A stretch of 64,000 nt of DNA from an uncultured Gemmatimonadaceae bacterium (GTDB lineage: Bacteria > Gemmatimonadota > Gemmatimonadetes > Gemmatimonadales > Gemmatimonadaceae): the NCBI GenBank assembly GCA_963740355.1, contig CAVUDW010000002.1:128001-192000 (forward strand). Direction: 5' to 3'. The notes beneath the pieces are model-generated. The model saw nothing but the letters and a program-made list of their open reading frames with translations. It did not search any database and had not been told where the DNA came from. The position numbers and the translations under genes were made by a program. How positions within the stretch are numbered: the stretch's first letter is position 1; every line of letters begins with the position of its first letter. Positions 28,048 to 61,062 of the stretch are shown piece by piece.

Positions 28048-28163
28048 CGGCGCAAACTGCCGGACGAGCGGCAAGACCCGCCGACCTGAACGGTGATTCG
28101 AGGGAGAGCTGAATTCTCAACTCGTTGCAATACAACTGTTTACGACATGGCATGGGGGGTGCT
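28048..28163 (+). promoter_or_regulatory. sigma54 promoter A with enhancer boxes and 25-bp box
   Basis: CGGC-N7-GCCG at 28048-28062 and 28069-28083; 25-bp box 28118-28142; TGGCATGGGGGGTGCT (GG-N10-GC) at 28148-28163. Confidence 0.75.
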
Positions 28164-28207
28164 TTGGGCGAGGGGACACCCGATCGCTCACGGATCAGAG
28201 GATTCCC

Positions 28208-29159
28208 ATGTCTATGCCCAACGTCGTGCACCCGTGGTCTACCAGCCCGGCATCGTTCATCACTCCCTTCCCGGATGTGATCGTGTCGTCGGCCGAACCC
28301 GAGGTCACGACCGACGTCGCCCCGATTGCCCAGGCGCTGTTCACGGCCGGCTACCAGTCGGCGGCAATCGCGCTGGCCGAAGCGAGTCCGGACGAGATAC
28401 TGCACGGCATCGCGGCCGGCTGGCGGATGATCGTCGCGGCTGATGCCGCGCTGGCCGAGCAGATCGGCCGCGGCGGTGGGCGTGCTGATTCCATCGCTGC
28501 CGATGCGAAAGGACGGTTCGCCACGGTTCGTGGTGCAGATCCATGACGCCGACACCGCAGTCGCCGCCATCGCGCAGGAACAGGGCGATAGCGGCGTGGA
28601 CGCGGAGATGCGGCTCTTCCTCGACGAAGCGCTGCGCGATGGGGACCGGTTTGTGGACGCATCGCCGAGCGCCGGATTTGCCGCGTTGAGTGCGGCGAGC
28701 GGCGCGGCGGTGACGAGCGTGATCGTGCTCTGCGAGGACGCTGAGCAGTGTGCGGCGATCGAGGCCAGCGCGCGCTGGAGTGATCTGTCGGCAAGCGTCA
28801 CTGCACGCGAAGGCGTCTCGCTGGACGCCGTGCCGTTCGGCGCGGCTGTCGAGGGTGCCTCGACTATTCTCCACGCCGGCAGTGCGGCGGCCGTGGCTCC
28901 GCTGCTGCGCACCGCGCGGGGCGCGTTGGAACGGAGAGAGATCGGCGCGGTGGCCTGGCGCTGTGGACGCGCAGACGAATCGGGCCGCGATGCGGAGAAT
29001 CTGCAGGTCGCGGCGGCGGTGCTCGGCGTGTTCGGCTTCATCCACTTCGCACTCGCGGAAGGGGCGAACGGGACCGAGCTCGTTCCAGCCGAGGCGATGG
29101 CGAGCAATGAGATGATCTTCTCGATCGAGCCGAGCTTCCTGGCGCGGTTCGCGTCATGA
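28208..29159 (+). pseudogene. FkbM-methyltransferase-like protein split by a one-base insertion near 28466 (possibly an assembly error)
   Basis: ORFs 28208-28546 and 28443-29159 fuse into 316 aa if GATCGGCC is read GATCGCC; 'FLDEALRDGDRFVDASPSAGF' resembles a degenerate FkbM motif. Confidence 0.55.
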
Positions 29160-31250
29160 CTGCTGTGTCGTTGCGTGTGGTGCCTCCGTCGCCTGCGACG
29201 GATGTGCACGATGGCGCGACTCAGTTGTTCACCGCGCTGGCGACGTCACAGTCGCCAGCGTTTGGCGATTCAGGACGCCTGTCGACCGCTGCGGAAATTG
29301 CCACCTCGGAGATCGAGGCGGCGTGGGGAAATGCGCGAGTGGTAAGCTTCGACGTGTTCGACACGCTGATCGTGCGGAAGGTCGCGGCGCCGCGTGATGT
29401 GTTCCTGCACCTTGCAACACCGTCGCCGTTCTCGTCATGGGGGATGGGTGCGCTCGAACTGGCGCAGCACAGGCAGGAGGCGGAAAACGAGGCCCGTCGA
29501 CGCGGCGTCGTCGCACGCGGAAGTGCGGAAGTCACGCTGCACGAGATTCATGCCGTGCTGGCGGAGCGACTGTTCCGCACCGAGACGGACGTGCCGGCCA
29601 TGGTGCAGGCCGAACGACTGGTGGAGCGCGCGCTCTGCGTCGCGCATCCGCACCTGCGGCGATTGTTCGATCGCGCGCAACGCGACGGCAAGACGGTCTG
29701 GTGCGTGAGCGACACGTATCACGAAGAGGTCTTTCTCCGCGAGCTGCTCGAATTCTGCGGCTTCGCGGTGACTGGGCTGCAGGTCGTGAGCTCCGCCGAT
29801 CTGCGAATGTCCAAAGGCGAAGGGAAGGTGCTACGTCGCCTCGCGACCGAGGCGAAGGTGTCGCCCTCCGATGTACTGCACATCGGTGATCATCCGCAAT
29901 CCGACGGAGCGATTCCGCTGGAGCAGGGCTTTCGCGCCGTCTGTCATCCCTGGGCGGCCAGCCAGCATTCGGATCGGCCCAGCATCGGCGCCGGGCGATT
30001 CAGTCGCGCTCGGCCTGGCCCAGATCGGCTCACGCGTGGTGGAACCGGCGTTCCCCTTCTGGTGGCGCTTCGGTTATTCCGTTGCTGGGCCTCTGCTGAG
30101 CGGCTTCGCATTGTGGTTGCACGATCGATTCATGGCCGATGGTGTGCAGCGCGCGTACTTCCTGCTGCGCGATGGCGAGATCATCCTCGATGTGTATCGC
30201 GCATTGCTGGGTGATCGCCCGGGGCCCAGCACCGCGCTGCTCGAGTCGTCACGTCGAGCCTTCATCCTGCCAGCGCTGGAGGCGGGAAACCCATCGGTGA
30301 CCGCACAACTGCTGGCGTGCGAAAATGCGCGTCCGGCGCGCGAGTTCCTCGAGCGGATCGGGCTCCGCGCGACTGACTTTGCCGCAGCCTTTCGCGCAGT
30401 TGGCCTGGAGTCGATCGACACGATCGTCGACCGCCGAGACAACACGGCCATGGCGAAGGTGGCCGCCTTGTTCGGGCGTATGGATGTGGTGAACGCGATG
30501 GTGTCGCGATCCCGGACCGAGCGCGCATTGCTGTGGAAGTTCCTCGCGCAGGAAGGGGTGTTGGCACCCGGTCATGTCGGGCTGGTCGACATCGGGTGGA
30601 ATGGCACGATCCAGAAGGCGCTGATGTCGGTGGCGAAGGTCGAGCAGACGCCGCTCGATCTCTCTGGGTACTACCTCGGCACACAGCCGGCCATTTCCGC
30701 GGACCTGAACGGGAGTGCCGCGAGCGGATACCTGTTCAACGCCGGCGCACCTTTCGAGCGGGCGCGGGCCGTGACGCAGCTGCAGCAGTTGGTGGAATTC
30801 ATCTGTACGACCACACGCGGCAGCCTGCGTGGCTTTCGCGCTGAGGGGAAGTCGGTCGTGCCGGTGCATAGCGCCGTGGATCATCCCGCGTCGCAGCACG
30901 AGGCGGTGGCGCAACTGCGCGACGGTGCTGTCGCGTACGCGCGCGGGTTGGCGCAGGAACGAAAGGTGTTCGGTGACGATCCGATCAGCGCTGACGCTGC
31001 GCTGCGACACCTGGCGCGGACCATCCAGCAGCCGACTGCTGAAGAAGCCGCAGCCATCGGCGACATCCAGCATGGCGAAGGGCTCGGGGCGGATCGTGTG
31101 CGATCCTTCGCCGCATTCAGCGACGGCGCGTTCACCGCGCAATCGCTGCTCGAGGATCATGCGCGGGCGTACTGGCCAGCCGGGCTGCTCGCGCGTCGCG
31201 AGCCCGCTGCACTGGCGCTACGCGCGCTGCTTTGGCTGCGAAGCGCGTAA
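29156..31250 (+). pseudogene. HAD-superfamily hydrolase of polysaccharide loci split by a one-base insertion near 29976 (possibly an assembly error)
   Basis: 'SFDVFDTL', 'VSDTY', 'LHIGDHPQSD' in frame 1; 'YFLLRDG', 'VDIGWNGTIQ' in frame 2; fusion gives 697 aa. Confidence 0.75.
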
Positions 31251-31251
31251 G

Positions 31252-33096
31252 GTGAAACTGCCCGTCGTGCTCCTGCCCTCCGGCGCGTCGAGCGGTGCGC
31301 GCGAGCGGACGCTTGCGTCGGTGTCGGCACAGAGCATCGATGTCGAGGTGGTGACGACAACCGAGGCATTGCTGCGTGGCTCCGGAGAATTCGTTGCGCT
31401 CGTCTTGTCCGGCACGGTGCTGGACGCCACGGCATGTGAACGGGCTGTCTGGTTCCTGGCGTCGCATCCGGCCGTGCCGTGTGTCACAGGCGCATCGGCT
31501 ACACCATCGGCCACCTCGGCGATGTTGGCAGCGGCGCTGCAGTTCGTGGTGATGCGCATGTCTGTCGCGCAGCGACTGCTCGACGCGGGTGACCAGCTGC
31601 AGGCCGCAACAGCGATCGCTCTCATCATCGGGTCGCGACGCGAGTCGGGACGGGGTGCGGGATGGGTGTCAGACCCCCTGATTCGCGCAAACGCGGATCC
31701 GGCGATCCTCGTACGAATTGAAGCCGAGGCGCATGTCGCCCTGCAGCAGCTCGCTCTCGATGACGCAGCGTTATTCGATCTTGGCGCCAGTGGAGTGCCG
31801 GTGGCGCCGCAGCAGGCGCTGACGAGTGTTGCGTGGCCAGCCATCGACGTTAAACGCGCGCCCACCGGCGGCATGCGGATTCTCGCACTGCTGCAGGGAT
31901 TTCCGATGGGTGGCTACACCGCGTTCAACGCTGAGTTGCTGCCCCGCCTGACCGCCTCAGGGCACGCGGTGACCACCTGCACGACGGAGTTCTTCCGCAC
32001 TGACTGGCGACTCGACCTCGTGCGCGATGCAGCTCCCGACATCCATCACGCTCACGCGGTGGTACCCTCGACGGCGGTCCCGTCGTACATCGATTGGCTG
32101 ATCACGTCGCGCGCGATCGATGTCGTGCTGCTCAGTCACAGCTATCTCGGCTTCCACGCTCTGCCATATCTCCGAGCACGTCACCCGACGGTTGCGTTCG
32201 TGGACTATGTGCACACCGATTGGTTCGAGAGCGCGATGTATGGCAGCTATGCTACGATGGCATCGCGGTTCGAGGGGCAACTGGATGCACAGCTGGCCAC
32301 CAGCGTCGCGCTGGCGTCGCAGCTGATCGACGCCGGTTGCGATGCGGCTGCCGTGCGTACCGCACATATCGGCATCGATACAGCGGCGTGGCGACATGCG
32401 GGGCCGCGACTCGAGGCGGTGCGCACGTCGCTGGGTGCCTCGAAGGACACGGTCGTGTTGCTGTTTTCTGGTCGCATCTCGCCGGAGAAACGGCCGGAGC
32501 TGGCGGTCGACGCGCTGGTGCAGTTGCGTGCCGAAGGGACGGATGCGCTGCTGGTATTCGCCGGGAGTGGCCAACTCCTGCAGGCCACTCACGAGCGCTC
32601 GGTTGCGCTCGGCGTGGAGTCGTCCTGCAAGTTCCTTGGTGAACTGGACGAGGCCACACTCCGTCACGTCTATGCGGCTGCGGACCTCTTCATCGCGCCA
32701 TCGGCGATAGAAGGGATTGCACGCTCGCTGTATGAAGCGATGGCGATGGGGTGCGTGCCGGTGGTCTCAGACGTCGGTGGCCAGCGCGAGCTGGTGATCG
32801 ATGGCACGGGCAGCCTGGTGAATGCGGCCTGTGCGACTGCCTCGCCGTATGTGGACGGTATTCGTCCCTGGCTCGCCCGCGACGCGAGAAGCCGCGCGAG
32901 CGCCGCAGCACGCGCACACATCGTGGCACACTTCGACAGTCACCGCACGGTTCAGAAGGTCTGCGACGCGCTGCGCCTTGGCATCACGCGGCGAGTCATT
33001 CGGCAGGAGACGCTGCCGGCGGCGATGGCTGAGGAGCTGGCGGTGATGGCGATCGAAGTGATGCGGCGCCACGTGCTCAAGATCGTGTCGCGGTAG
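31252..33096 (+). CDS. Glycosyltransferase, C-terminal GT4 domain with degenerate GT2-like N-terminus
   Basis: 'FSGRISPEKRP', 'EGIARSLYEAMAMG...SDVGGQRE'. Confidence 0.85.
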   Translation: MKLPVVLLPSGASSGARERTLASVSAQSIDVEVVTTTEALLRGSGEFVALVLSGTVLDATACERAVWFLASHPAVPCVTGASATPSATSAMLAAALQFVVMRMSVAQRLLDAGDQLQAATAIALIIGSRRESGRGAGWVSDPLIRANADPAILVRIEAEAHVALQQLALDDAALFDLGASGVPVAPQQALTSVAWPAIDVKRAPTGGMRILALLQGFPMGGYTAFNAELLPRLTASGHAVTTCTTEFFRTDWRLDLVRDAAPDIHHAHAVVPSTAVPSYIDWLITSRAIDVVLLSHSYLGFHALPYLRARHPTVAFVDYVHTDWFESAMYGSYATMASRFEGQLDAQLATSVALASQLIDAGCDAAAVRTAHIGIDTAAWRHAGPRLEAVRTSLGASKDTVVLLFSGRISPEKRPELAVDALVQLRAEGTDALLVFAGSGQLLQATHERSVALGVESSCKFLGELDEATLRHVYAAADLFIAPSAIEGIARSLYEAMAMGCVPVVSDVGGQRELVIDGTGSLVNAACATASPYVDGIRPWLARDARSRASAAARAHIVAHFDSHRTVQKVCDALRLGITRRVIRQETLPAAMAEELAVMAIEVMRRHVLKIVSR

Positions 33097-33108: not shown

Positions 33109-33224
33109 CGGCAGTCCATGCCGCCCGTTCGATCGCACTCGGCAGAGCATGCCGTTCGAGGGTAACGAGCGGATTTCGTAAACGCATGTCGCAGAAGGCT
33201 TTAGCGAACGGCATGGCCCGTGCT
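33109..33224 (+). promoter_or_regulatory. sigma54 promoter B with enhancer boxes and 25-bp box
   Basis: CGGC-N7-GCCG at 33109-33123 and 33140-33154; 25-bp box 33179-33203; CGGCATGGCCCGTGCT at 33209-33224. Confidence 0.75.
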
Positions 33225-33311: not shown

Positions 33312-35216
33312 ATGTGCGGCATCGCAGGCATCGTGAACGTGCAGGGCACGCCCGTTTCGCCGGGTGTGCTCCGTGCGATGACGGATATCGTGCGACATCG
33401 TGGTCCGGACGGCGAAGGCCAGTGGATCAGGAACGGGGTGGGCTTCGGGCATCGTCGCCTCGCGATCGTCGACCTGTCGCCTGCCGGCGCGCAACCGATG
33501 CAGAGCAGCGACGGCGCGTATGTGATCACCTTCAATGGCGAGATCTACAACTGGCGGGAGTTGCGAACGGAGCTCGGCAAGCGAGGCGCGGTGTTCCGCT
33601 CACACAGCGACACCGAGGTGTTGCTGGAAGCCTACCGAGTCTGGGGGCCGAAGTGCCTCGAGAAGCTGAATGGCATGTTTGCATTCGCGATCTGGGATTC
33701 GCGCAACTCACGTGTCTTCCTGGCGCGTGACCGCTACGGCATCAAGCCCCTCTACTATCGCTGGGATGGCCAGACGCTGCTGTTCGGCTCCGAGATCAAG
33801 TCGATCCTGCAGCATCCCTCGGTCAGTGTGCGCGTCGATCAGGCCGCACTGGGCGAATACTTCTCGTTCCAGAACGTGTTCAGTGACCGCACGTTGTTCG
33901 ACGGCATCAAGCTGCTGCCGCGTGCGTCATCGATCACGTTGGAGCTCGGCCGGCCAGAGTCCTTCGACATCACGCGCTGGTGGGACTACCAGTTCGTGGA
34001 GGAGAAGGGAGTCAGCGAGGGAGAGTATCTCGAGGAACTGGACCGACTGTTTCAGCAGGCTGTGGAGCGCCAGGTGCAGGCGGATGTCGAGGTCGGCACG
34101 TACCTCAGCGGTGGTATCGACTCAGGTGCAGTCACCTGCATCACGGCACGGCGATTCCAGAACGTGAAGAGTTTCACGGCTGGCTTCGACCTGTCGTCGG
34201 CCTCCGGGCTCGAGATGGCGTTCGACGAGCGCGCCAAGGCCGAGATTCTTTCTGCTGCCTATCGTACCGAGCACTATCAAGTGGTGCTGAAGGCGGGCGA
34301 CATGGAGCGCATCCTGCCGGACCTGGTCTGGCACCTGGAGGACCTGCGTGTCGGTCAGAGTTATCCGAACTATTACATCTCCCGGCTGGCGTCGCGCTTC
34401 GTAAAGGTGGTGCTGGCTGGCACCGGTGGCGACGAGATCTTCGCCGGCTATCCGTGGCGCTACTATCGCGCGGTGAAAAACGACGACGCGTCGCAGTATC
34501 TCGACAAGTACTACGCATACTGGCAGCGACTGGTCCCCGAGCAGCATCGTGGTTCGTTCTTCCGCCCGTCGGTGCAACGCGCGATGGTGACGCACACGCC
34601 GGAAGCGGCGTTCCGCAGTGTGCTACGCCGGCGGTCGTTCCTCGCGATGACGCCGGATGACTACGTCAACCACTCGCTCTATTTCGAGCTGTCCACCTTC
34701 CTCAGCGGGCTGCTGGTGGTGGAGGACAAACTCTCGATGGCGCACGGGCTGGAGACGCGCGTGCCGTTCCTCGACAACGACCTGGTTGACTTCGCGCTGC
34801 GTGTGCCGGTGAAGTACAAGCTGAAGAACGTGGACAAGATCGTGCGCATCGACGAGAACACCCCAGGCTTGAAGCGCCAGAAGTACTTCGATGAAACGGG
34901 TGACGGAAAGTTGATCCTGCGCAAGGCGCTCGCGCGCTATGTACCGGCCGGATACGCGAATGGCCGCAAGCAAGGCTTCTCTGCGCCCGATGGCAGCTGG
35001 TTCCGTGGGCAGAGCATCGACTACATCCGGAAGCTGCTGCACGCGAAGGATGCGCGGATCTACGAGTTCCTCGATCCCGAGACGGTGCACACCGTGCTTG
35101 ATGAACACGTGTCAGGAACGACGAATCACCGCTTGGTGATCTGGTCGATGCTCTGCTTCGAGTGGTGGCTGCGCCGGTTCCGCGACGGCGAAGCGGTCGC
35201 GGCGAACGCTGCCTGA
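33312..35216 (+). CDS. asnB: Asparagine-synthase-family glutamine amidotransferase (glycan amidation type)
   Basis: N-terminal 'MCGI', 'HRGPD', 'NGEIYN', 'LSGGIDS', 'GGDEIFAGY', 'RVPFLD', 'KQGF'. Confidence 0.92.
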   Translation: MCGIAGIVNVQGTPVSPGVLRAMTDIVRHRGPDGEGQWIRNGVGFGHRRLAIVDLSPAGAQPMQSSDGAYVITFNGEIYNWRELRTELGKRGAVFRSHSDTEVLLEAYRVWGPKCLEKLNGMFAFAIWDSRNSRVFLARDRYGIKPLYYRWDGQTLLFGSEIKSILQHPSVSVRVDQAALGEYFSFQNVFSDRTLFDGIKLLPRASSITLELGRPESFDITRWWDYQFVEEKGVSEGEYLEELDRLFQQAVERQVQADVEVGTYLSGGIDSGAVTCITARRFQNVKSFTAGFDLSSASGLEMAFDERAKAEILSAAYRTEHYQVVLKAGDMERILPDLVWHLEDLRVGQSYPNYYISRLASRFVKVVLAGTGGDEIFAGYPWRYYRAVKNDDASQYLDKYYAYWQRLVPEQHRGSFFRPSVQRAMVTHTPEAAFRSVLRRRSFLAMTPDDYVNHSLYFELSTFLSGLLVVEDKLSMAHGLETRVPFLDNDLVDFALRVPVKYKLKNVDKIVRIDENTPGLKRQKYFDETGDGKLILRKALARYVPAGYANGRKQGFSAPDGSWFRGQSIDYIRKLLHAKDARIYEFLDPETVHTVLDEHVSGTTNHRLVIWSMLCFEWWLRRFRDGEAVAANAA

Positions 35217-35242: not shown

Positions 35243-36880
35243 TCAGGCGCGGGCGGTGATGGCTGCGTCGAGGGTACTCACGAGGTCCTGGCGCCCGCAG
35301 GCGATGAACATCGCGTTCATCTCATCGAGCGCTTCGTGGAAGGTGCGCGTTCCGCGGGCGTGAATGCTGCGCCGCGGTGCCTCGAGGTCGTCGGCAAGGG
35401 CGAGCGCGGCCGAGGCCGCGTCGGTCAGTCCGGCGGCGGTGAACACCGCCCAGCGCGCCCATTCGAGCTCGGCACGATGCATGTCCGGGAAGGTGGCAGC
35501 ATGCGACACCGCCTCATCGACACGTCCGAGCGCGAGCAGCGTGATCAGCCACATCGCCCACTCGATCGGATCAGGCTCGCGGCCACCGTGGGTGAGGATC
35601 ATCTCGATCGACGCCTTGAGGAAGAAGAGCGCGTCATTCGGCTTGCCGGTGTGCAGCAGGCAGGTGGCGAAGCCAAGTCGTGGCTCCGCCATGTACGGCG
35701 TGTAGGCCACACACTGTGCGAACTGTTCCATCGCCGAGGCAAACTCGCCACGATCAACCGCGTGCCATGCCGTGCGCAGCAGCGCTCGATCGGTCGAGGC
35801 GCTGTCGATGTGCACCTGCTGGTCGGGCGCGTGCTCCGCCACGATACGGAGATCGCCACACATCGTCGACTGCACGATACGCTGGCCAGGCTGCATTTGC
35901 TTGTGAAGCTGGTACCACTGCAGGATCTGCGGGCGTTGTTGGATGGTATGATGCGAGTGGACGAGATCGAAGCCGTTGCGCGTGATGCGCTGCATCTCGT
36001 CGGGATGCCTGAAGAGGTGGTCGACCACGTCACGCACATCACCTTCGTCGGCGAAGACACAGTTTTCCATGTGCCGGAACCCGAACTCGCGGAGGATCGG
36101 CGTCTCCTCAGTGAGCAGCAGGCTGGCCGACGCCGGGATCTCGAGGTGCTTATTGACCAGTGCCTTCACCATGCCGCCGCAGGTCGGCGTGATGTACGCC
36201 GAGTTGATCAAGCGACTATACGGCTCGTCGAAGAGTGCCTGTGATGAATACTTCGGCGAATAGCCGACATGCGGCACCACGACGGTCTGAAAGTGCTCCG
36301 ACACGGCGGCGCGGATTCGCTTGCGCCAGGCGTACTGTGCGATGTCGGTGTTCCCCATGAACAGGATGGGCAGCAGCTTCTGCTGGCCGTAGTCACGATA
36401 GATCGTGGCGTCGACGGCGAAGGGCCAGTAGAACAAATTGTCGGCGATTTCCGGCAGGTAGTCGCCGGCGTTCGACACGTACGTGAACCAGGTGTCGATA
36501 CCCCACCGCTCCATCTCGGCGTAGAACGTGGTGCGGGATGGACACATCGGGTCGGCCCGCATGAAGCCCAGTTTCGGGATTGCGGGGTGCGACGAGGTGT
36601 TGCTGATGCTGGTGTAGGGGCCGGCGTAGTTGTTGTTGCCACTTTCGAAGAGAGTCAGGTCCGGCTGGTGCAGGTCGCAGATCTCGCCGTAGTCGCAGTC
36701 GTTCTCGACGATGACGAGGTCGAACCATTCCGAGAGCCCAGTGACGAACAATCGCTCGAAGAGCCGCTGGTTGAACGGCGGGTACGAGGTCAGTGGCCAA
36801 CGGAAATACACCATCCGCGGCTTCGCGGATGGTGTATCGAGCGTCTGTGGATGCACGCAGTGCCGAATGGTGCTGATCAT
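35243..36880 (-). CDS. Glycosyltransferase (CgeB/Glyco_trans_1_2-like) with C-terminal TPR-like helices
   Basis: 'ILFMG', 'KHLEIPAS', 'RITRNGFDLVHSHHT'; TPR-like 'AEPRLGFATCLLHTGKPNDAL'. Confidence 0.7.
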   Translation of the reverse strand: MISTIRHCVHPQTLDTPSAKPRMVYFRWPLTSYPPFNQRLFERLFVTGLSEWFDLVIVENDCDYGEICDLHQPDLTLFESGNNNYAGPYTSISNTSSHPAIPKLGFMRADPMCPSRTTFYAEMERWGIDTWFTYVSNAGDYLPEIADNLFYWPFAVDATIYRDYGQQKLLPILFMGNTDIAQYAWRKRIRAAVSEHFQTVVVPHVGYSPKYSSQALFDEPYSRLINSAYITPTCGGMVKALVNKHLEIPASASLLLTEETPILREFGFRHMENCVFADEGDVRDVVDHLFRHPDEMQRITRNGFDLVHSHHTIQQRPQILQWYQLHKQMQPGQRIVQSTMCGDLRIVAEHAPDQQVHIDSASTDRALLRTAWHAVDRGEFASAMEQFAQCVAYTPYMAEPRLGFATCLLHTGKPNDALFFLKASIEMILTHGGREPDPIEWAMWLITLLALGRVDEAVSHAATFPDMHRAELEWARWAVFTAAGLTDAASAALALADDLEAPRRSIHARGTRTFHEALDEMNAMFIACGRQDLVSTLDAAITARA

Positions 36881-39005: not shown

Positions 39006-39006
39006 C

Positions 39007-41132: not shown

Positions 41133-41273
41133 GTGGTGCTCCACCCGGTGTTGAAAGAGTTGGTGCACCCGCCCCGCTCGGGATCCCCACACATCTGGTG
41201 GTAGAGCCGAGGCGGGACGGATGCAGCACAACGGGCGTCGCGAGGACACCTGCGCTGCACAGAGCATCGGAAA

Positions 41274-47318: not shown

Positions 47319-47358
47319 GTGCGATGTCGCTCGAAGTCAGGCGCGTGTCAGTCGCGAA

Positions 47359-47622: not shown

Positions 47623-47692
47623 CCTTGCTTCCCCATACGCCAAATTGTGAAGGGTGCGACTCCGCGCCACCCGTGAATCCTGCGACTACGAA

Positions 47693-49090: not shown

Positions 49091-49100
49091 CCTGGGCTCC

Positions 49101-49673: not shown

Positions 49674-49680
49674 GTAAGTC

Positions 49681-53255: not shown

Positions 53256-53274
53256 CAGAGATCTCCTGTGCGGC

Positions 53275-54027
53275 TTACGCCGGCTTTCCGATCTGGTTGG
53301 CGGCAATGCCGCGGATGTCATCCATCACTGAGATGGACTTCTGCACGTCCGCGTAAGCGCGCACGGTGTCGATCATTTCCGTCAGCGACTCGATGGCGTT
53401 CACGTTGCTGCCCTCGAGTGCCCCCTGCATCACGTTGCGATCGGCTTCGGCGGCGGGCTTGCGGGCGGCGTCGGGGAGAAAGAGTCCTCCACCTGCGTGC
53501 TGCAGGACGGCTGTCGGCGGAACACTCTCGATCCGAAGAACAGCGGCGTTCAAGCGCCCGGAGAGCCCCGCCTTGCCGTTACTGCCGTCGCCCGTTGCTG
53601 GTGGCTGCACGGTGATCACACCGTTGCGGCCGATGCCGACGTCGCCGCTGGGCAGCGTGATCGGTCCGTTCTCACCGAGGACCAGGTGTCCCTGCTGCGT
53701 CACCAGGCGGCGCTGATCGTCGAGGCGGAGTGCTCCCCCACGCGTGAGGCGTTCACCGTCCGGCGTCTGCACCACCAGGAAGGCATCGCTCTGCATCGCG
53801 ACATCGAGGGAGTTGCCGGTCGGCGTGACATCGCCTTGTGAGCGATCGGTCATCGAGTCGGCCGCGGCGACCGCGTCATCCACCATGCGACCGAAGACCC
53901 GTTCCTTCTTGAAGCCGGTGGTGTCGACGTTGGCGAGGTTGTTCGCGATCGACTGCTGGCGCCGCTCATAGAAGTGCAGGGCGGCGGCAGCGCTGGTCAG
54001 ACCGGAGTTCTTGAGGATCGGGGGCAT
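53275..54027 (-). CDS. flgF: Flagellar basal-body rod protein FlgF
   Basis: 'ANNLANVDTTGFK', 'LTRGG', 'LEGSNVN'; upstream of flgG. Confidence 0.85.
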   Translation of the reverse strand: MPPILKNSGLTSAAAALHFYERRQQSIANNLANVDTTGFKKERVFGRMVDDAVAAADSMTDRSQGDVTPTGNSLDVAMQSDAFLVVQTPDGERLTRGGALRLDDQRRLVTQQGHLVLGENGPITLPSGDVGIGRNGVITVQPPATGDGSNGKAGLSGRLNAAVLRIESVPPTAVLQHAGGGLFLPDAARKPAAEADRNVMQGALEGSNVNAIESLTEMIDTVRAYADVQKSISVMDDIRGIAANQIGKPA

Positions 54028-54058: not shown

Positions 54059-54187
54059 TGCAAGGGGGGGGCCGAAATGTCATGATCGGCTAATTCGTTT
54101 TAGGACAACGACTTATAAGAATTATCAGCTCTCGCTGTTGCGTTGGTGGCTGGGCAATTCATGCCGGTCTCGTGGAAGGGAGTGCCG
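54059..54187 (-). promoter_or_regulatory. sigma54 promoter E (flgF operon) with enhancer boxes and 25-bp box
   Basis: Minus strand CGGCCCCCCCCTTGCA (GG at 54073/54072); 25-bp box 54091-54115; GGGC-N7-GCCG 54152-54166 and TGGA-N7-GCCG 54173-54187. Confidence 0.7.
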
Positions 54188-54346
54188 ACTACATCCCCGT
54201 TGGGGCTGTTTCAGGTCGCTTTGAAATTTTCTCCCAATTTCCATCGAGTTAGGATTCCTGCTGAAAGTGTGGAATTAATTCCTAATTTAGTAGAAATTAG
54301 GAGTTGGCTGGGAGCAATCGTACCACGCATCGCATCACTGACGAAC

Positions 54347-55717
54347 ATGAAGCTGCCCGTCCCACCGCCGGATTTCAGGACATTGCTCCGCGCGGTGTTC
54401 ACGCGGACAACTGGCTCGGCGCAGTTCGACGATTTGATGAGTCTGCGCCTTTCGGCCGCGCCCGAAGGCAAATACCGGCACTGGGATACCTTCCGGCACA
54501 CAACAGACGTCGCGGGATTTCCGGCCGACGAGCGTTGGCTCGCGGTCAAGTTCGCGCGTCGCGCGATGTACCGGACGCTCCCACTGCACGATGTGAGTGG
54601 CCGACCATTCCAGTACGCCCTGGCTAACCCCGTCCTGGAGATGCTGCACCAGATCGACCGGAACGCCGGTGGCAACATTCAAGGCAGTGAGCAGGTCACG
54701 AATCCCTCCACCCGGGATACCTACCTGTTCAAGTCGGTTCTGGAGGAGGCGATCACTTCGAGCCAGCTCGAAGGCGCGTCCACGACACGCAAGGTCGCGA
54801 AAGCGATGATTCAGGAGGCACGGGCACCTCGTAGTCGCAGCGAGCGGATGATCCTGAACAACTATCATGGGATGTTGTTCATACGCGACTACATCACGCA
54901 GCCGCTGACACCGGCCATCGTGCTCGAATTGCAGCGCTGTCTGACGGATGGGACGCTTGATGAGCCTGACGCCGCAGGACGCTTCCGGCGACAGGACGAG
55001 CACATCGTTGTCGAGGACGACACAGGAACCCGTCTCCACACCCCGCCTGACGCGAGCGAGCTTGCGGATCGTCTGCAGGCGATGTGCGACTTTGCCAACG
55101 GATCGCCACAGGACGAGTTCACTCCTCCCGCAGTGCGGGCGATCCTGCTCCACTTCTGGCTGGCGTACGACCACCCATTCGTAGACGGCAATGGCCGCAC
55201 GGCGCGAGCACTCTTTTACTGGGCGATGGCGCGTTCGGGATACTGGCTCTGCGAATACGTCTCGATCTCACGGATCCTTCGGAAAGCACGAGCGCAGTAC
55301 GCGCGCTCATTCTTGTACACGGAAACAGATGACAATGACGTCACCTATTTCCTGCTCTACCAAATGCGCGTGCTGCTCCGGGCGATTGCTGACCTCCATG
55401 AGTTCCTTGCGCGGAAAGCGACTGAGATTCAGGAAGCCGAGGAGATCGTGAGGCGCGCGTCATCCGTGAACTCGGAGCTGAATCCGCGGCAGCTTGCCTT
55501 GATCAATCATGCTCTGAAAACATCGACTGCGCGGTACACGGTCGAGTCGCATAGAATCTCTCACGGCGTGAGTTACGAGACGGCGCGCAGCGACCTGCTC
55601 AAGCTCGTCGGGCTGCGTCTGCTGGTGAAGCGGAAGGCGGGAAAGGCATTTGTGTTCTCGCCGGCAGCGGAATTGCGCGAGCTGCTGCCGGACGAACGCG
55701 AGACTCGTCTCTCCTGA
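54347..55717 (+). CDS. Fic family protein (class II-type, C-terminal wHTH)
   Basis: Catalytic 'HPFVDGNGRTAR'; inhibitory (S/T)xxxE(G/N) 'SSQLEG' N-terminal to it; C-terminal 'HGVSYETARSDLLKLV'. Confidence 0.92.
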   Translation: MKLPVPPPDFRTLLRAVFTRTTGSAQFDDLMSLRLSAAPEGKYRHWDTFRHTTDVAGFPADERWLAVKFARRAMYRTLPLHDVSGRPFQYALANPVLEMLHQIDRNAGGNIQGSEQVTNPSTRDTYLFKSVLEEAITSSQLEGASTTRKVAKAMIQEARAPRSRSERMILNNYHGMLFIRDYITQPLTPAIVLELQRCLTDGTLDEPDAAGRFRRQDEHIVVEDDTGTRLHTPPDASELADRLQAMCDFANGSPQDEFTPPAVRAILLHFWLAYDHPFVDGNGRTARALFYWAMARSGYWLCEYVSISRILRKARAQYARSFLYTETDDNDVTYFLLYQMRVLLRAIADLHEFLARKATEIQEAEEIVRRASSVNSELNPRQLALINHALKTSTARYTVESHRISHGVSYETARSDLLKLVGLRLLVKRKAGKAFVFSPAAELRELLPDERETRLS

Positions 55718-55885: not shown

Positions 55886-56503
55886 TCACCCCACCCGCGC
55901 ATTGAACTGCGTCCCAAGCGTCCGGCTCTTGGCAGCGGGCTGCGGGCGTGCCGCAGTGCCGTAGGCACCCGGCGCAGTCATCGCGCCCTCGGTGGCCGCG
56001 GTGCGCGCCGGCGCCTTGGGCGCCGTCGCGGCCTTCGCCGCCGCCGCACGACGTGCGTGCGCCTTCGGGTCGGCATTGGCCATCATCATCACCACGGCAT
56101 CACGGGCGAGCCCGGTGCGGCGCGCGATGTCGAGTGCATCAGCATTCGTTGCACGCAGCGCGCGCGTCGCAACCTTGGACACCGGCGTCGAGACCTTGAT
56201 GGTCTTGTTCGAGCCGGACTTGCGGCGCGGACGCACGACCACGGCCTGCTCGGCCGGAATCGACTTCATGCCCATCGGCGTCAGCCAGCGACGGAAGCCG
56301 CTGCCGTTCGACGGCGTGGCCAGCTGTACGGCGACTTCAGCGGCCGCCCTGCGGCGACCGCGCAAGATGGCAGCGATCGAGAGCAATAGCACCACAACCA
56401 ACAGCGAACCGACAATCATCACATCGAGCTGGTCACCGGCGATCACACGCTGCACGAACTCCGTGACCTGCGTGCGAACCTGGTCGAAATCGATCGTTGG
56501 CAT
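55886..56503 (-). CDS. Single-TM protein with C-terminal HTH-like motif (SwrB/YlxL-like)
   Basis: TM 'IVGSLLVVVLLLSIAAIL'; 'ALDIARRTGLARDAVVMMM'; overlaps the fliA stop. Confidence 0.55.
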   Translation of the reverse strand: MPTIDFDQVRTQVTEFVQRVIAGDQLDVMIVGSLLVVVLLLSIAAILRGRRRAAAEVAVQLATPSNGSGFRRWLTPMGMKSIPAEQAVVVRPRRKSGSNKTIKVSTPVSKVATRALRATNADALDIARRTGLARDAVVMMMANADPKAHARRAAAAKAATAPKAPARTAATEGAMTAPGAYGTAARPQPAAKSRTLGTQFNARVG

Positions 56504-57456
56504 CAGGCCACTTCCTCGCGCAGCGGGCGCAGTTCGGTCCGCAACTTCTGCAGGGCCTTGGATCGGATCTGTGACACGCGGCTTTCCGTCAGCTGCAGGA
56601 TGTCGGCGATCTCGTGAAGCTTCAGCTCCTCGAAGTAGTAGAGGCTGAGCACGGTGCGCTCCTGTTCCTTCAGGCGCAGGATCGCATCGCGCAGGTGATG
56701 CACTTCCTGCTCGCGGGTGATCAGGTCATCGACCGAGTCATTGCCTTCGTCAGCCAGCACTTCGATCGGCGTCGGGGCCATCGTTTCGGTCTCGCTCGGG
56801 CTGCGATCGAGCGGCACATGGTGCGCGCCTTCGACATCGGAGCGCCACTTCCAGAGCGTCGGCAGATCCACCCCAAGATGTTCTGCAACTTCGCGATCAT
56901 TCGGTGCACGACCCAGCACGCGACCAAGCGTTTCGCGGGCCTGGCCGATCTCTCGCGTCTTGCGGCGAATCGAGCGCGGCACATGATCCTGGCGACGGAG
57001 TTCGTCGAGGATGGCGCCACGAATGCGCGGGGCGGCGAAGGTGCTGAACGCGAGGCCGCGATCGACATCGAAGGCTTCGAGCGCAGACATCAAGCCGATT
57101 GAACCAGAGCTTACCAGCTCGTCGAAATCCGCCTTCACTGCCAACGTCTTCGACATCTGGCGTGCGACATGGTGCACCAGGCCCAGATGTTCCTTCAGCA
57201 GCTGTTCACGAGCATCAGGATCCCCGGCGGCCATCGCGCGCCAAAGCGAAATCTGCGGGTCCATCGTCGGCTCTTTGCGCTTGGGTGAAGGCGCAGCTCC
57301 GCTGCGCGTGGTGGTCGTCAGCGTCGCGCGTGGCGAGCGAACTGGAACCGGGCTATCGGACGGCGACACGAGTGGCAGGACGGCGTTGGCCGCGGCCTCG
57401 ATCACGGGCTGGGATGCGGTGATCACGGGGCGTCGGGTGCGAGTGGAATTCGTCAT
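56503..57456 (-). CDS. fliA: Flagellar sigma factor FliA/WhiG (alternative start 57264)
   Basis: 'FSTFAAPRIRGAILDELR', 'LYYFEELKLHEIA...TESRVSQI'. Confidence 0.93.
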   Translation of the reverse strand: MTNSTRTRRPVITASQPVIEAAANAVLPLVSPSDSPVPVRSPRATLTTTTRSGAAPSPKRKEPTMDPQISLWRAMAAGDPDAREQLLKEHLGLVHHVARQMSKTLAVKADFDELVSSGSIGLMSALEAFDVDRGLAFSTFAAPRIRGAILDELRRQDHVPRSIRRKTREIGQARETLGRVLGRAPNDREVAEHLGVDLPTLWKWRSDVEGAHHVPLDRSPSETETMAPTPIEVLADEGNDSVDDLITREQEVHHLRDAILRLKEQERTVLSLYYFEELKLHEIADILQLTESRVSQIRSKALQKLRTELRPLREEVA

Positions 57457-58271
57457 GCGGCCACCTGTCCGGCCACAAGGCCGAGTGATGCGAGGATGCG
57501 CTGTGGTGCGGGCTTCAGATCGCCGGGAACATCGAGTCCGTCGGTCAGCCAGCGCGTTGGGAGGGCGAGTAAGGCAGCGAGATCGGCAACGCCGGAATCG
57601 TCCGGCAGATCGTCGAGCTTCGTGAGCAGCAGGTGCGTTGGGCGCATCGCGAGGTGTGTGTTCCAGGCGGTGGACGCGACATCGAGGCGCACCCCGGCGG
57701 GAATCACGAAGTGGATCTCGTCCGGGCGCATCGCGCGCAGGATCGGCCACCACTCTTCATCACGTGCACCGGCCTTCGGACTGCGGCCAGGCGTGTCGAC
57801 GATCACGACGTCGACGTCGTTCAGCTGCCCGATGGCGCGCGTCGCGTCAGCGGCATCATACGCCACCTCGAGCGGACAACCAGTGATCTCGGCGTAGGTC
57901 GCGATCTGCTCGAGCCCTGCCACGCGGAAGGTGTCGAGCGTGACCATGCCGACGTTCCAGGTGCCGAAGGCGTGCACGTTGGCGGCCATCTTCGCGATCG
58001 TCGTCGTCTTGCCAGCGCCGGTGGGGCCGACCAGTGCGATGATGTAGGGACGATTGCCGCGGCGCGTCTGCGGTGCAGGCAGGTGCGTCGGCGTGATCTG
58101 GTCGCGGAAGTTGTCCACGTCCGTTGCGGACGCTGCGACGACTTCGACGGCCGACTCGCTGCCGTCGCGCACGGTGCGCGTCTGCAACACGACGGCATCA
58201 TCACCGAAGAGGGCTTCTGCGCTGCGAGCGACCGAGCTGAGGTCACGCGCACGGAATGTTTCAAGCCGCAT
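57453..58271 (-). CDS. flhF: Flagellar SRP-type GTPase FlhF (short, 272 aa)
   Basis: N-terminal 'MRLETF...FGDDAVVLQTR'; 'GPTGAGKTTTIAK', 'DTFR', 'DTPGR', 'TKLD'. Confidence 0.88.
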   Translation of the reverse strand: MRLETFRARDLSSVARSAEALFGDDAVVLQTRTVRDGSESAVEVVAASATDVDNFRDQITPTHLPAPQTRRGNRPYIIALVGPTGAGKTTTIAKMAANVHAFGTWNVGMVTLDTFRVAGLEQIATYAEITGCPLEVAYDAADATRAIGQLNDVDVVIVDTPGRSPKAGARDEEWWPILRAMRPDEIHFVIPAGVRLDVASTAWNTHLAMRPTHLLLTKLDDLPDDSGVADLAALLALPTRWLTDGLDVPGDLKPAPQRILASLGLVAGQVAA

Positions 58272-60354
58272 GTGGCAACTCCCAGGTGGCAACGGACGTG
58301 AGATTGACCGACGCCGGCAATTCGGCGAGGCTGATGACCGGGACGTTGGGGAGTACCGGTTCGATGAGGCGGCGCACGCCGACACGCAGCGTGGGCGGGG
58401 TGATCAACGGCAGCGGACGACCTTCCACCGAGTACATGGTGGCAATGCCATTCAGTTCGCGCAGCAGCGTGGCGAGTGTGTCGGGATTGAGCAGCGACAT
58501 GCCCTGCTGCGTGCCACGCGGACTGAAGAGACCCATCAGCGACGCTTCGAGGCGCGGACCGATCGTGACACCGCGCACACTGCCGGTCATGTCGAGGAAC
58601 AAGCGGCTGATGGAATTGGCCAGTGCGCGACGGACGAACTCTGTCAGCTGCTCCGGATCCTTCGACTGCTCTGCCGCGTCGCCCAATGCTTCGAGAATCG
58701 AGACGAGGTCGCGGATCGGCACACGCTCGCGCAGCAGGCGCTGCAGCACGCGATGCAGCGTGCCCAGGTTAATGCGGCCGGGGATGATTTCCTCGACCAG
58801 CGCTGGATGACTCTTCTTCAGCGCGTCAACCATCTCCTGCACATCCTGGCGGCCGAGCAGATCGGCAGCATGCATCTTGAGCGTTTCCATCAGGTGCGTG
58901 GCGATCACCGTTGACGGCTCGACCACTACCCATCCAGCAGCTTCAGCTTCGACACGTGCCTGTGCGGTGATCCACTTCGCCGGCATGCCGAAACTGGGAT
59001 CGACGGTATCCATGCCGTCGATCTCCTGCATCACGCCACCGGTGTTGAGTGCGAGCAGGAAACGCGGCATGACTTCGGCGCGCGCCACTTCGGCACCGCG
59101 GATCTTGACGATGTATTCGTTCGCCGGGAGGCGGATGTCATCTCGGATGCGAATCGCCGGCACCAGGATGCCGAGTTCCTGCGCGCCCTGCTTGCGCAGC
59201 AAGGAGATGCGCTCGAGGAGGTCGCCGCCCTGCTTTTCGTCGATCAACGGGATGACGGCGTAGCCGACTTCCAGTTCGATCGGATCGATCTGCAGCAGGT
59301 CCTGCATCGGATCGGTGGTGGCGGGCAGCGCCGGCTTCGGTGTGTCGAGAATCAGCTGCGCGGCTTCGCTGCGTACTTCGATGGCGGTTGCACTGCGCGC
59401 CACGAATGCCATCGTGCCGGCCAGTGCGAAGAACGGGAACGCTGGCAGGCCAGGCATGAGTCCGAAGCTGGCCAGCACGCCGGCGGCAATCCACAATGCG
59501 CGTGGTTGACGGGCGAGCTGGCCGGTGATCACATCACCCATGCCTCGACCGTTGTTCGCCGAGTTGGTGACCATCAAGCCAGCGGCGACCGAGATGATCA
59601 ACGCTGGGATCTGACTCACCAGGCCTTCACCGACGGTCAGCATGACGTACTTGTTGGCGGCGGCGGCGAGCGGCAATCCCTTCTGCATCACGCCGATCAC
59701 GATGCCGCCAATGATGTTGATGCCGGTGATGAGCAGCGCGGCAACCGCGTCGCCCTTCACGAACTTCGATGCACCGTCCATCGAGCCGAAGAAGTCGGCC
59801 TGTTGCGACACACGTTCGCGACGGATGCGTGCGGCACCTTCGTCGATCAGGCCAGCGGCGAGATCGGCGTCGATCGCCATCTGCTTGCCGGGCATGGCAT
59901 CGAGGGTGAAGCGGGCGGCGACTTCGGCCACGCGTCCTGCACCCTTGGTGATGACGACGAAGTTGATCGCCAGCAGGATCAGGAAGACGACGATGCCGAC
60001 GACGTAGTTGCCGCGCAGGATGAATGTGCCGAACGCCTGGATGATGCTGCCAGCGTGGCCTTCACCGAGGATCAGCCGCGTCGAGCTGACGTTCAGGCCG
60101 AGGCGGAAGAGCGTGAGGATGAAGAGGACGGCGGGGAACGACGAGAACTCGAGCGGATCCTTGGTCGACAGCGCGACCAGCAGCACCACCAGTGCGCTGG
60201 CGATGCTGGAGGCCAGCAGCAGGTCGAGAATGACAGCAGGGAGCGGAACGACGAGCAGCGAGATGATCGCGACGACGCCGATGGCGAGGGCGATTTCTGC
60301 CGTGCGGGCAGGCTTTGCAGCGCCCGAAGGCAGCGCGGCCGCTGCACTGCTCAC
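58261..60354 (-). CDS. flhA: Flagellar export protein FlhA
   Basis: 'RVAEVAARFTLDAMPGKQMAIDADL', 'GSMDGASKFVKGD'. Confidence 0.96.
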   Translation of the reverse strand: MSSAAAALPSGAAKPARTAEIALAIGVVAIISLLVVPLPAVILDLLLASSIASALVVLLVALSTKDPLEFSSFPAVLFILTLFRLGLNVSSTRLILGEGHAGSIIQAFGTFILRGNYVVGIVVFLILLAINFVVITKGAGRVAEVAARFTLDAMPGKQMAIDADLAAGLIDEGAARIRRERVSQQADFFGSMDGASKFVKGDAVAALLITGINIIGGIVIGVMQKGLPLAAAANKYVMLTVGEGLVSQIPALIISVAAGLMVTNSANNGRGMGDVITGQLARQPRALWIAAGVLASFGLMPGLPAFPFFALAGTMAFVARSATAIEVRSEAAQLILDTPKPALPATTDPMQDLLQIDPIELEVGYAVIPLIDEKQGGDLLERISLLRKQGAQELGILVPAIRIRDDIRLPANEYIVKIRGAEVARAEVMPRFLLALNTGGVMQEIDGMDTVDPSFGMPAKWITAQARVEAEAAGWVVVEPSTVIATHLMETLKMHAADLLGRQDVQEMVDALKKSHPALVEEIIPGRINLGTLHRVLQRLLRERVPIRDLVSILEALGDAAEQSKDPEQLTEFVRRALANSISRLFLDMTGSVRGVTIGPRLEASLMGLFSPRGTQQGMSLLNPDTLATLLRELNGIATMYSVEGRPLPLITPPTLRVGVRRLIEPVLPNVPVISLAELPASVNLTSVATWELPHAA

Positions 60355-60593
60355 GCGATGGCTCCGGTGCGCGTGTGCGCGGTCGGTGCGTCATAGGTCG
60401 TGCCGAGGCGGGACGACGGGGCGCGGAATCGTGTGGTGCGAGCGGCCGGCACTTCGAGGCGACGGGTCGAGCCGTTCGACGGCGCGTCGTAGCGTGTGAT
60501 GGTGCGGGCAGCGGGTGCGTCGTAGCGGCGAGTATGTCCGTCGGCCGGCTGATAGCCGTAGCCGGAGCGGGACAGGGTGCGGGAGGCGGCCAT
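60351..60593 (-). CDS. Small Arg/Thr-rich protein with YDAP repeats (80 aa)
   Basis: GAGGA RBS, ATG 60593, stop overlaps the flhA start (GTGA); fills the fliQ-flhA gap. Confidence 0.6.
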   Translation of the reverse strand: MAASRTLSRSGYGYQPADGHTRRYDAPAARTITRYDAPSNGSTRRLEVPAARTTRFRAPSSRLGTTYDAPTAHTRTGAIA

Positions 60594-60604
60594 GGTGTCG
60601 TTCC

Positions 60605-60874
60605 TCAGGCCGCGAACTGGGGCAGACCGCGGAACAGCTCGGTCGTGAACTTCACGAGCAGCTGCACCATCCACGGCAGGGCCACGAGGAAGATCGCCGA
60701 GACACCGACGAGCTTCGGCAGGAAGACGAGGGTCTGTTCCTGGATCTGCGTGACGCTCTGGAAGATCGAGACGGCGAGTCCGATGCCGAGGGAGACGGCC
60801 AACATCGGGGCCGAGACCAGCAGCGAGAGCAGGATGGCGTTGCGAGCGAGGTCGACGATCTGTGCGTGTGACAT
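60605..60874 (-). CDS. fliQ: Flagellar export protein FliQ
   Basis: 'SIFQSVTQIQEQTLVFLPK', 89 aa. Confidence 0.93.
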   Translation of the reverse strand: MSHAQIVDLARNAILLSLLVSAPMLAVSLGIGLAVSIFQSVTQIQEQTLVFLPKLVGVSAIFLVALPWMVQLLVKFTTELFRGLPQFAA

Positions 60875-60909
60875 TGAGCCGTGTGGGGTCAGGGACGGTC
60901 TCAAGCAGA

Positions 60910-61062
60910 AGCACGGGCGGTGCCATATCAGGACGGGCTGGGCCATTCGACCTAACTCGTTGATTGACAATGCTTTATACGTTGTAGCGTTGAGCCGGCT
61001 GAACCTGCCGAATCGACCAATCCGGCAGGTGTTGCCGAGTGTGGGGGCGGCGCGGATTGCCG
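60910..61062 (-). promoter_or_regulatory. sigma54 promoter D (fliQ-flhA-flhF-fliA operon) with enhancer boxes and 25-bp box
   Basis: Minus strand TGGCACCGCCCGTGCT (GG at 60924/60923); 25-bp box 60953-60977; CGGC-N7-GCCG at 60996-61010, 61023-61037, 61048-61062. Confidence 0.8.

Follow-up and report, generated by a model that had tools for sequence, protein, structure and literature searches.

Whether the genes of a sugar-modification island are switched on together with the flagellar genes around them is the question raised by this locus. The window, a stretch of 64,000 nucleotides (nt) from an uncultured Gemmatimonadaceae bacterium (genome G000; 5.45 Mb, 65% G+C, 94.5% complete), is part of a motility supercluster that, by Pfam and NCBIfam scans, spans about 105 kb, with motAB at one end and the che genes at the other. 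A 19-kb sugar-modification island (28.2-47.3 kb), here called the glycan island, lies in it between motAB and csrA-flgK. An initial annotation of this DNA had proposed that five sigma-54 promoters share one enhancer architecture, and that a single activator thereby serves flagellar operons and three operons of the island. Our analysis makes it fairly probable that at least seven operons, three of them glycan-island operons, would form a sigma-54 regulon under one NtrC-family regulator, and the core of this predicted arrangement is supported by independent comparative evidence. Positions without a prefix are those of the window.

Promoters and enhancer boxes

Sigma-54 promoters carry GG and GC 10 nt apart in the consensus context TGGCAC-N5-TTGCW. 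This signature is present at all five sites named previously and also ahead of fliL and flgB. The sigma-54-type promoters of the window are TGGCATGGGGGGTGCT (28148-28163, +), ahead of the ATG at 28208; CGGCATGGCCCGTGCT (33209-33224, +), ahead of asnB at 33312; CGGCACGGTTGCTGCT (41289-41274, -), ahead of the dehydratase/epimerase ATG at 41132; CGGCCCCCCCCTTGCA (54074-54059, -), ahead of flgF; and TGGCACCGCCCGTGCT (60925-60910, -), 51 nt upstream of the fliQ ATG. The flavour GGCAY-N6-TGCTT is common to six of the seven promoters. Transcription is predicted to start 11-13 nt past the GC, at about 28173 (+), 33235 (+), 41263 (-), 54048 (-), and 60899 (-). Given the promoter at 54059-54074, the start codon of flgF should be the ATG at 54027. 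The label of fliQ (60605-60874, -) was right, given a PF01313 match at 60644-60862 (94.5 bits) and a typical 89-aa translation. The genome encodes rpoN once (PF04552, 212 bits) and ten bacterial enhancer-binding proteins (bEBPs), recognized by strong PF00158 matches.

Upstream of these promoters, the eight exact CGGC-N7-GCCG boxes of the initial annotation were all found, at 28048, 28069, 33109, 33140, 41398, 60996, 61023, and 61048. The motif can be refined to a 15-bp palindrome, CGGCA-N5-TGCCG, which is perfect at 33109, 33140, and 61023 and off by one position in the other five copies. Box starts measure 69-137 bp from the promoter start at the five window promoters, close to the 65-140 bp first estimated, and 111 bp (fliL) and 147 bp (flgB) at the other two. 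Operon 1 is preceded by two boxes 21 bp apart, CGGCGCAAACTGCCG (28048-28062) and CGGCAAGACCCGCCG (28069-28083), at -100 and -79 from its promoter. The asnB promoter carries the two best boxes in the genome, the perfect palindromes CGGCAGTCCATGCCG (33109-33123) and CGGCAGAGCATGCCG (33140-33154), at -100 and -69. The enhancer region of the epimerase operon (41339-41412) combines a wider-spaced CGGCA-N10-TGCCG (41339-41358) with the exact box CGGCAGAGTTGGCCG (41398-41412). At flgF there is a one-mismatch box only, GGGCAATTCATGCCG (54152-54166), 92 bp upstream of the promoter, and fliQ has three boxes in the region 60996-61062 (60996; 61023, the perfect one; 61048), spaced 27 and 25 bp. The fliL operon has its box and promoter beyond the window, at C2:194787-194898.

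An AT-rich element with a CAA-N4-TTR core and a CGTAAA-like tract upstream of it stands between boxes and promoter in all seven regions. A stricter form, CGTA[AT]A-N10-16-CAACG-NN-TT, occurs five times in the genome, and three of the five are at these promoters. The element fits what we take to be the consensus of integration host factor (IHF), WATCAANNNNTTR. IHF-like elements were located at 33177-33204 (CGTAAACGCATGTCGCAGAAGGCTTTAG), 41293-41320 (CGTAAAGCGTTGCCTCGCAATAGTTTAG), 54090-54119 (ctaattcgttttaggacaacgacttataag, by eye), and 60954-60981 (CGTATAAAGCATTGTCAATCAACGAGTT, minus strand); the one at 28119-28144, CGTAAA-N-CAACGAGTT on the minus strand, has the opposite orientation to those at the other promoters. 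Two DNABII genes are present; the NCBIfam models that fit their products best are those of IHF beta (90.6 bits against a cut-off of 115) and IHF alpha (82.3 bits against 111), and neither product reaches its cut-off. Thus, of the 25-bp box and the IHF parallel drawn earlier, the AT-rich element recurs throughout, and binding by IHF is a putative function of it. An enhancer, a bending site, and a sigma-54 promoter served by an NtrC-family activator make up a textbook layout.

Three further sites were noted in these scans. A weak sigma-54-like site, TGGGACTGCCTCTGCA (41415-41430, +), found by eye, faces the divergent glycosyltransferase operon at 41480 (+) and would share the 41339-41412 enhancer. 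Outside the cluster, TGGCATGCTCGTTGCA at C2:2068693 (+) has a one-mismatch box at -84 and is an eighth candidate beside the seven of the cluster; it precedes a 300-aa low-complexity open reading frame (ORF) of no family. A loose composite at 12131 (+) with a one-mismatch box, returned by a loose-pattern scan, was regarded as chance.

Genomic distribution of the architecture

The arrangement of boxes and promoters is far from chance. Genome-wide there are ten box pairs spaced 15-45 bp (about six expected), and four of the ten fall within the 33-kb span that holds the eight boxes listed above. The perfect palindrome occurs 32 times in 5.45 Mb (about six per Mb), five times within C2:161109-207128. 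Composites were defined as a strict sigma-54-like site with a box of at most one mismatch 40-220 bp upstream, and the same range downstream served as the control. Thirteen of the 271 strict sites in the genome form a composite, against seven in the control. Seven of the 13 lie within 51 kb (C2:156148-206995), at the three glycan-island operons, flgF, fliQ-flhA, fliL, and flgB.

The architecture was followed into 60 other genomes of the family, 18 of which encode FlhB and are taken here as the flagellated relatives. Three genomes flagged as unpublished (G007, G033, and G034) are included in the denominators of the FlhB and regulator-orthologue counts; no positive result rests on them. In the same-genus relative G010, the promoters of fliQ/flhA, fliL, and flgB are all retained, and their boxes stand as far upstream as in G000 (-137/-112, -111, and -146, respectively). 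The region upstream of flgB was surveyed in every flagellated relative but G018 (17 of 18), in which FlgC was matched by a fragment at a contig end. A perfect palindrome lies within 1 kb upstream of flgC in 11 of the 17, far beyond chance for a site that occurs about six times per Mb; three have a one-mismatch box only, and three have no box there, one of which offered just 911 nt to search. FlgC identity in the 16 analysed relatives outside the genus is 46-57%. The conservation that the earlier proposal would predict is seen both in G010 and at flgB in most of the relatives surveyed.

G050, a single-contig genome of another genus, was searched with a strict composite (perfect box, gap, GGCMY-N6-TGCTT). 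All four matches fall in its flagellar region (C1:356271-402558), one of them ahead of flgF-flgG, and the reversed-pattern control gives one match. The strict composite with a 50-80 nt gap had no match in five relatives. The promoter arrangement after flhB is absent in 16 of the 18 flagellated relatives; it is shared by G010 only, and in G050 the box and the site stand in the wrong order.

The glycan island

The island comprises three operons with the shared cassette and further glycosyltransferase genes. Operon 1 (28208-33096, +) encodes, according to Pfam, a 112-aa ORF of unknown function with a G+C fraction at third codon positions of 0.85, an FkbM-like methyltransferase (a lead only; Atlas 0.94), a HAD-like hydrolase, an unknown protein, and a GT4 glycosyltransferase; its long-ORF starts overlap and are uncertain. 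Operon 2 (33312-35216, +) is asnB, a glutamine-hydrolysing amidotransferase of the asparagine synthase type (TIGR01536, 462.8 bits, cut-off 267.1). Operon 3 (35243-41132, -) encodes an NAD-dependent 4,6-dehydratase/epimerase, a DegT-family aminotransferase whose best match is PseC/LegC-like and below cut-off, a FemAB/GNAT-like protein, a radical SAM/SPASM protein, and a TPR-glycosyltransferase-like protein. Two GT1/GT4-type glycosyltransferase genes (41480-44118, +) are divergent from it. A second asparagine-synthase-type amidotransferase gene and a GT2 gene follow csrA, downstream of the flgF-to-flgK genes; no intergenic terminator-like site was recognized between csrA and these two genes, and they may ride on the flgF transcript. 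In total, the island holds a dehydratase, a PseC/LegC-like aminotransferase, two amidotransferases, a FemAB-like protein, a radical SAM protein, and five or six glycosyltransferases.

Sugar-modification enzymes and glycosyltransferases are thus embedded in a flagellar cluster, as is characteristic of a glycosylation island, and TPR and TPR-GT9 genes adjoin the flagellin gene. The most likely use of the island, judged from its location, its gene content, and the TPR-glycosyltransferases beside flagellin, is flagellin glycosylation. Alternatively, it may build another surface glycan (exopolysaccharide, lipopolysaccharide, S-layer glycan, or lipid-linked sugar) that is merely co-expressed with motility. 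This alternative, which we judge unlikely, draws on the best NCBIfam matches of the island proteins, which are of the exopolysaccharide/PEP-CTERM type (EpsE/EpsD-like glycosyltransferases, an XrtA-system amidotransferase, and FemAB, all below cut-off), and on the curated models, which identified no Maf/FlmG-type enzyme among them. It is also in keeping with a comparative study that ties sigma-54 to the cell exterior in general (PMC3162934). The position of the island inside the motility cluster speaks against it, as do the TPR-glycosyltransferase-like gene within the island, the TPR and TPR-GT9 neighbours of flagellin, the two island genes that follow csrA without a terminator-like site, and the different islands that occupy this place in G010 and adjoin fliW in G050. 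Replacement by different islands is the usual behaviour of flagellin glycosylation islands.

In G010, the island next to flgK encodes a 1234-aa GT2/GT4 protein, a methyltransferase, two nucleotidyltransferases, and a HAD hydrolase. A DNA search of the glycan island in G010 gave flanking and scattered matches only, and the promoter of the G010 island showed no meaningful homology when aligned to window positions 41100-41480. In G050, a non-homologous island lies between fliW and the TPR-GT9 gene and has two cassettes of box, AT-rich site, and sigma-54 promoter; one drives genes for an unknown protein, GNAT, AMP ligase, LuxE, LuxC, and GDSL proteins, and the other genes for GFO/IDH/MocA, DegT, unknown, and GT41 proteins. 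Variable content combined with a constant place and a constant cassette is the strongest comparative support for a tie between island and regulon. This supports the proposal that three glycan-island operons belong with the flagellar regulon, at the level of a predicted shared cassette that recurs in G050 with different genes. Synthesis of the island products probably coincides with that of the basal body and hook.

The candidate activator

The activator had been predicted to be encoded outside the window, and a candidate was found there, about 20 kb downstream within the supercluster. It is an NtrC-type response regulator of REC-AAA+-HTH_8 architecture (C2:211343-212950, -) whose gene adjoins flgL/fliW. 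Pfam places Response_reg at residues 49-158 and finds no FleQ domain; by eye, the receiver domain looks intact and phosphorylatable, with an acidic pocket and a conserved Asp. Orthologues with 67-95% identity are encoded in all 18 flagellated relatives, mostly directly upstream of flgBC (about 0.5-10 kb) with boxes in between. In several genomes the regulator gene is closely flanked by perfect boxes on its upstream or its downstream side, and in four genomes a perfect box 59-161 bp upstream of it hints at autoregulation. In G000, the 1.5 kb on either side of the regulator gene contain a one-mismatch site, at C2:212974, and no perfect box.

The initial annotation had likened the boxes to the ftr elements bound by FlbD of Caulobacter. 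Roseibium aquae carries a true FlbD equivalog (826 bits, cut-off 750), and the helix-turn-helix of the Gemmatimonad regulator is nearly the same as that of this protein (NRTRAAELLGISVRTLRNKLN vs NRTHAAKILGISIRTLRNKLN) at an overall identity of just 40%. The recognition helices, LGISVRTLRNKLN in the regulator and LGISIRTLRNKLN in FlbD, are identical except for V/I. An FlbD-type helix was found in none of the other nine bEBP paralogues of G000; RTLRNKL is present in eight of the 75 readable closest homologues across the species collection, and a pattern check of 17 orthologues from flagellated members of the family showed it unaltered in 14. At the fliK-flgD hook operon of Roseibium, a sigma-54 site is accompanied by one-mismatch boxes, CGGCAATCCTTTCCG at -110 and GGGCACTCCTTGCCG at -89, and by an AT-rich site; among the 25 sigma-54-like sites in 80 kb around flbD, this is the one that has boxes. 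The shared helix and the Roseibium boxes thus link the helix to the palindrome and support the ftr resemblance, as judged at a single promoter of one alphaproteobacterium.

In Caulobacter, FlbD activates rod and hook genes with sigma-54 and is controlled by FliX instead of a kinase (PMC3096577 and PMC7064773). The system proposed here is alike in having an NtrC-family activator at sigma-54 flagellar promoters, which IHF may assist, and a helix close to that of Roseibium FlbD. It differs in that the regulator scores 353 bits against the FlbD cut-off of 750 and has a phosphorylatable-looking receiver, and in that a search of the 94.5%-complete genome for FliX (PF10768) gave no match, the positive control in Caulobacter being matched. 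Furthermore, fliF, flhA, fliPQR, and fliA are predicted targets here, whereas they stand upstream of FlbD in Caulobacter according to PMC7064773. Because its targets include these genes, the regulator would behave as a master rather than a class III regulator. The idea of an alphaproteobacterial-style circuit is supported by the FlbD-type helix and the boxes, and is qualified by the regulator's family assignment, its apparently normal receiver, the lack of a FliX match, and the predicted early-gene targets. The Caulobacter flagellar sigma-54 promoters are IHF-dependent.

Kinase-linked response-regulator bEBPs that activate sigma-54 rod and hook operons in polar flagellates, namely FlrC, FleR, and FlgR, are described in PMC7064773. 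They resemble the regulator in their REC-AAA+-HTH architecture; it differs from them in that no adjacent sensor kinase was seen beside its gene, that it appears to control early genes too, and that it falls below the FlgR cut-off. In Xanthomonas oryzae, RpoN2 and FleQ control flagellar class II genes, fliA, and a ten-gene flagellin glycosylation island, gigX1-10, as stated in the review PMC8657755. Both systems, the present one by prediction, place sigma-54 and one bEBP over flagellar genes, fliA, and an island embedded in the flagellar cluster. They differ in phylum, in the FleQ N-terminal domain where the regulator has a receiver, and in the single rpoN of G000; the link described here is a predicted shared motif. 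The circuit is therefore less exotic than first implied, since this logic of flagella plus glycosylation island has already been described in X. oryzae.

The cis-architecture may also be real and its boxes bound by a different protein, either another bEBP (for example, the kinase-linked one at C2:105438) or a dimeric regulator that is not a bEBP, with the resident regulator acting on other targets. Ten bEBPs offer candidates, the resident regulator's orthologue persists in 12 genomes in which FlhB was not found, and its gene in G000 has the one-mismatch site in place of a nearby perfect box. Such a division of labour is nonetheless improbable, since the FlbD-type helix is found in the resident paralogue only, a genome with a true FlbD has near-identical boxes at its hook operon, the regulator gene is syntenic with flgBC across genera with boxes in between, and the helix is unchanged in most flagellated orthologues.

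Two observations concern the regulator outside the flagellated relatives. In the FlhB-less genomes G029 and G020, a FliA/WhiG-like gene of the sigma-70 family follows the orthologue; a perfect box lies between regulator and sigma gene in G029 and upstream of the regulator in G020. The RTLRNKL helix also occurs in bEBPs of Nitrospinaceae, Nitrospinia, Chitinispirillales, Verrucomicrobia, Chlamydiae, and one unclassified metagenome-assembled genome (MAG). Boxes beside the regulator genes of the RTLRNKL genomes in other phyla showed no enrichment.

Evidence against a shared regulon

Several results weigh against the proposed regulon or against single parts of it. The bulk count of boxes is ordinary. 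CGGC-N7-GCCG occurs 14 times in the window against 8.4 +/- 2.8 in shuffled sequence (three of 100 shuffles reach 14), and the genome total of 1031 corresponds to 12.1 per 64 kb; the caution voiced initially about chance occurrence was thus correct for bulk counts. A loose promoter pattern gave boxes upstream of 162 and downstream of 153 of 5194 sites, which is no global excess, so that the signal comes from the cluster and is not a general property of the genome. The expected enrichment over background accordingly fails for the bulk count and appears in the pairing and composite arrangement. One-mismatch palindromes are common (912 genome-wide); therefore, the single degenerate sites at flgF and the epimerase operon weigh little alone.

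The IHF-like site at 28119-28144 is inverted, and the IHF assignment leans on the consensus that we assume. The regulator scores below every NCBIfam equivalog cut-off: AtoC (455 bits, cut-off 714), NtrC (398, cut-off 559), FlbD (NF050807; 353.1, cut-off 750), and FlgR (311, cut-off 750). Its orthologue (68-75% identity) is also encoded in 12 genomes, G007 not counted, that gave no FlhB match, and it is therefore not a strictly flagellar gene; either its role is wider, or these genomes are remnants. In the Nitrospinaceae, Nitrospinia, Verrucomicrobia, Chitinispirillales, and Chlamydiae MAGs with the helix, perfect boxes number 4, 6, 21, 7, and 0 against 3, 2, 25, 8, and 2 in reversed controls, and none of 15 boxes inspected in RTLRNKL genomes of other phyla had a sigma-54-like site within 40-240 nt. 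The island asnB has no orthologue at E<=1e-100 in the 18 flagellated relatives and the G010 island is different, so the island cannot be footprinted. The G010 island is headed by a sigma-54-like site, TGGCACAATTGCTGCTTTTC, with just two 2-mismatch boxes.

Chance co-occurrence of boxes and promoters in a 65% G+C genome, which the ordinary bulk frequency and the loose composite scan would allow, is hardly credible in view of the clustering of pairs, composites, and perfect palindromes, the fixed box distances in G010, the flgB palindrome in most relatives, and the confinement of the G050 strict composites to its flagellar region.

Gene order in and beyond the window

The left flank of the glycan island is formed by motB (25489-26325, -; Pfam MotB_plug/OmpA) and motA (26325-27185, -; MotA_N/MotA_ExbB). 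The motility cluster is bordered on its left, immediately next to motB, by a gene for an rve-family integrase (24083-25257, +), an insertion sequence-like element. A few kb from motAB lie genes for an orphan PAS-PAS histidine kinase (14488-16161, -) and an EAL-HDOD protein (22411-23811, +), which are candidate signal inputs to the regulator or the motor.

To the right of the island, Pfam identifies flgF-flgG-flgA-flgH-flgI, an ORF with an FlgN domain, flgK, and csrA, then the second amidotransferase gene and the GT2 gene (44165-54027, -). csrA (47359-47670, -) comes after flgK, and fliW (L022:1986-2438, +) after an flgL-like gene; together they presumably represent parts of a CsrA-FliW checkpoint on flagellin translation of the Bacillus/Campylobacter type. 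Between the flgF and fliA operons, an ORF with a Fic/DOC domain (54143-55717, +; Pfam, 60.7 bits) would, if read at its greatest length, include the flgF enhancer box in its 5' portion; the real start codon is therefore probably farther downstream.

The next operon contains fliQ, flhA (58261-60354, -), a gene for an FlhF-like GTPase (57453-58385, -), and fliA, whose FliA/WhiG domain occupies the 3' two thirds of the ORF 56503-57753 (-; TIGR02479, 219 bits, cut-off 189.6). The position of fliQ is unusual: it follows flhB, has its own sigma-54 promoter, and heads fliQ-flhA-flhF-fliA instead of standing between fliP and fliR. The tail of the fliL operon, assigned by Pfam, consists of flhB (61228-62325, -), fliR (62333-63175, -), and fliP, which extends from 63133 (-) past the window end at 64000.

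Beyond the window follow, in order, fliN, fliM, and fliL, and flgE back to flgB with fliE, fliF, fliG, fliH, fliI, and fliJ. Further on are two metabolic genes, the bEBP gene, flgL, fliW, the TPR and TPR-GT9 genes, flagellin, fliD, fliS, flgM, and the che genes. The intergenic region between fliL and flgE (C2:194990-195290) contains, by eye, about four tandem copies of a unit of about 95 bp (gagatctctgaccccttgatcgg...), upstream of the fliL enhancer box.

Proposed mechanism and significance

In the mechanism that we propose, each promoter region would be built from three parts: one to three copies of CGGCA-N5-TGCCG 69-147 bp upstream, separated by about two to three turns of the helix; a bending site, AT-rich and IHF-like, at which IHF may bind; and the -24/-12 element GGCAY-N6-TGCTT. 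Dimers of the C2:211343-212950 regulator would bind the palindromes, and phosphorylation of the receiver would yield the active AAA+ oligomer. Bending of the DNA would then bring the oligomer to the closed sigma-54 holoenzyme, where ATP hydrolysis would open the promoter. The predicted flagellar targets are flgB-to-flgE (with fliE, fliF, fliG, fliH, fliI, and fliJ), fliLMN-fliPR-flhB, fliQ-flhA-flhF-fliA, and flgF-to-flgK; the three operons of the 19-kb island that carry the same cassette would respond with them. The regulator may thus be the top-level flagellar activator, with FliA (sigma-28) below it.

A broader reading joins these results, and we offer it tentatively. The FlbD-type helix and CGGCA-N5-TGCCG would be an old activator-enhancer pair of Alphaproteobacteria and Gemmatimonadota. 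In Gemmatimonadaceae, it might serve a phosphorylatable, FliX-independent master regulator, which even genomes with no FlhB match retain (in some cases with a FliA/WhiG-like sigma gene next to it), and its portable cassette might repeatedly wire in new, non-homologous flagellin-modification islands.

We found no literature on flagellar sigma-54 control, enhancer-binding proteins, or flagellin glycosylation in Gemmatimonadota/Gemmatimonas. The circuit is of a known type in a little-studied phylum; it overturns nothing and is unsurprising in principle. In sum, this study provides a concrete regulon model with an operator of 15 bp, a candidate regulator identified by its gene, predicted starts for seven promoters, and a two-tier hierarchy from sigma-54 and its activator to FliA. 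The recurrence of helix and operator hints that both are older than the alphaproteobacterial FlbD/FliX system. The model also shows how variable sugar-modification islands can join a conserved flagellar programme via a small promoter cassette.

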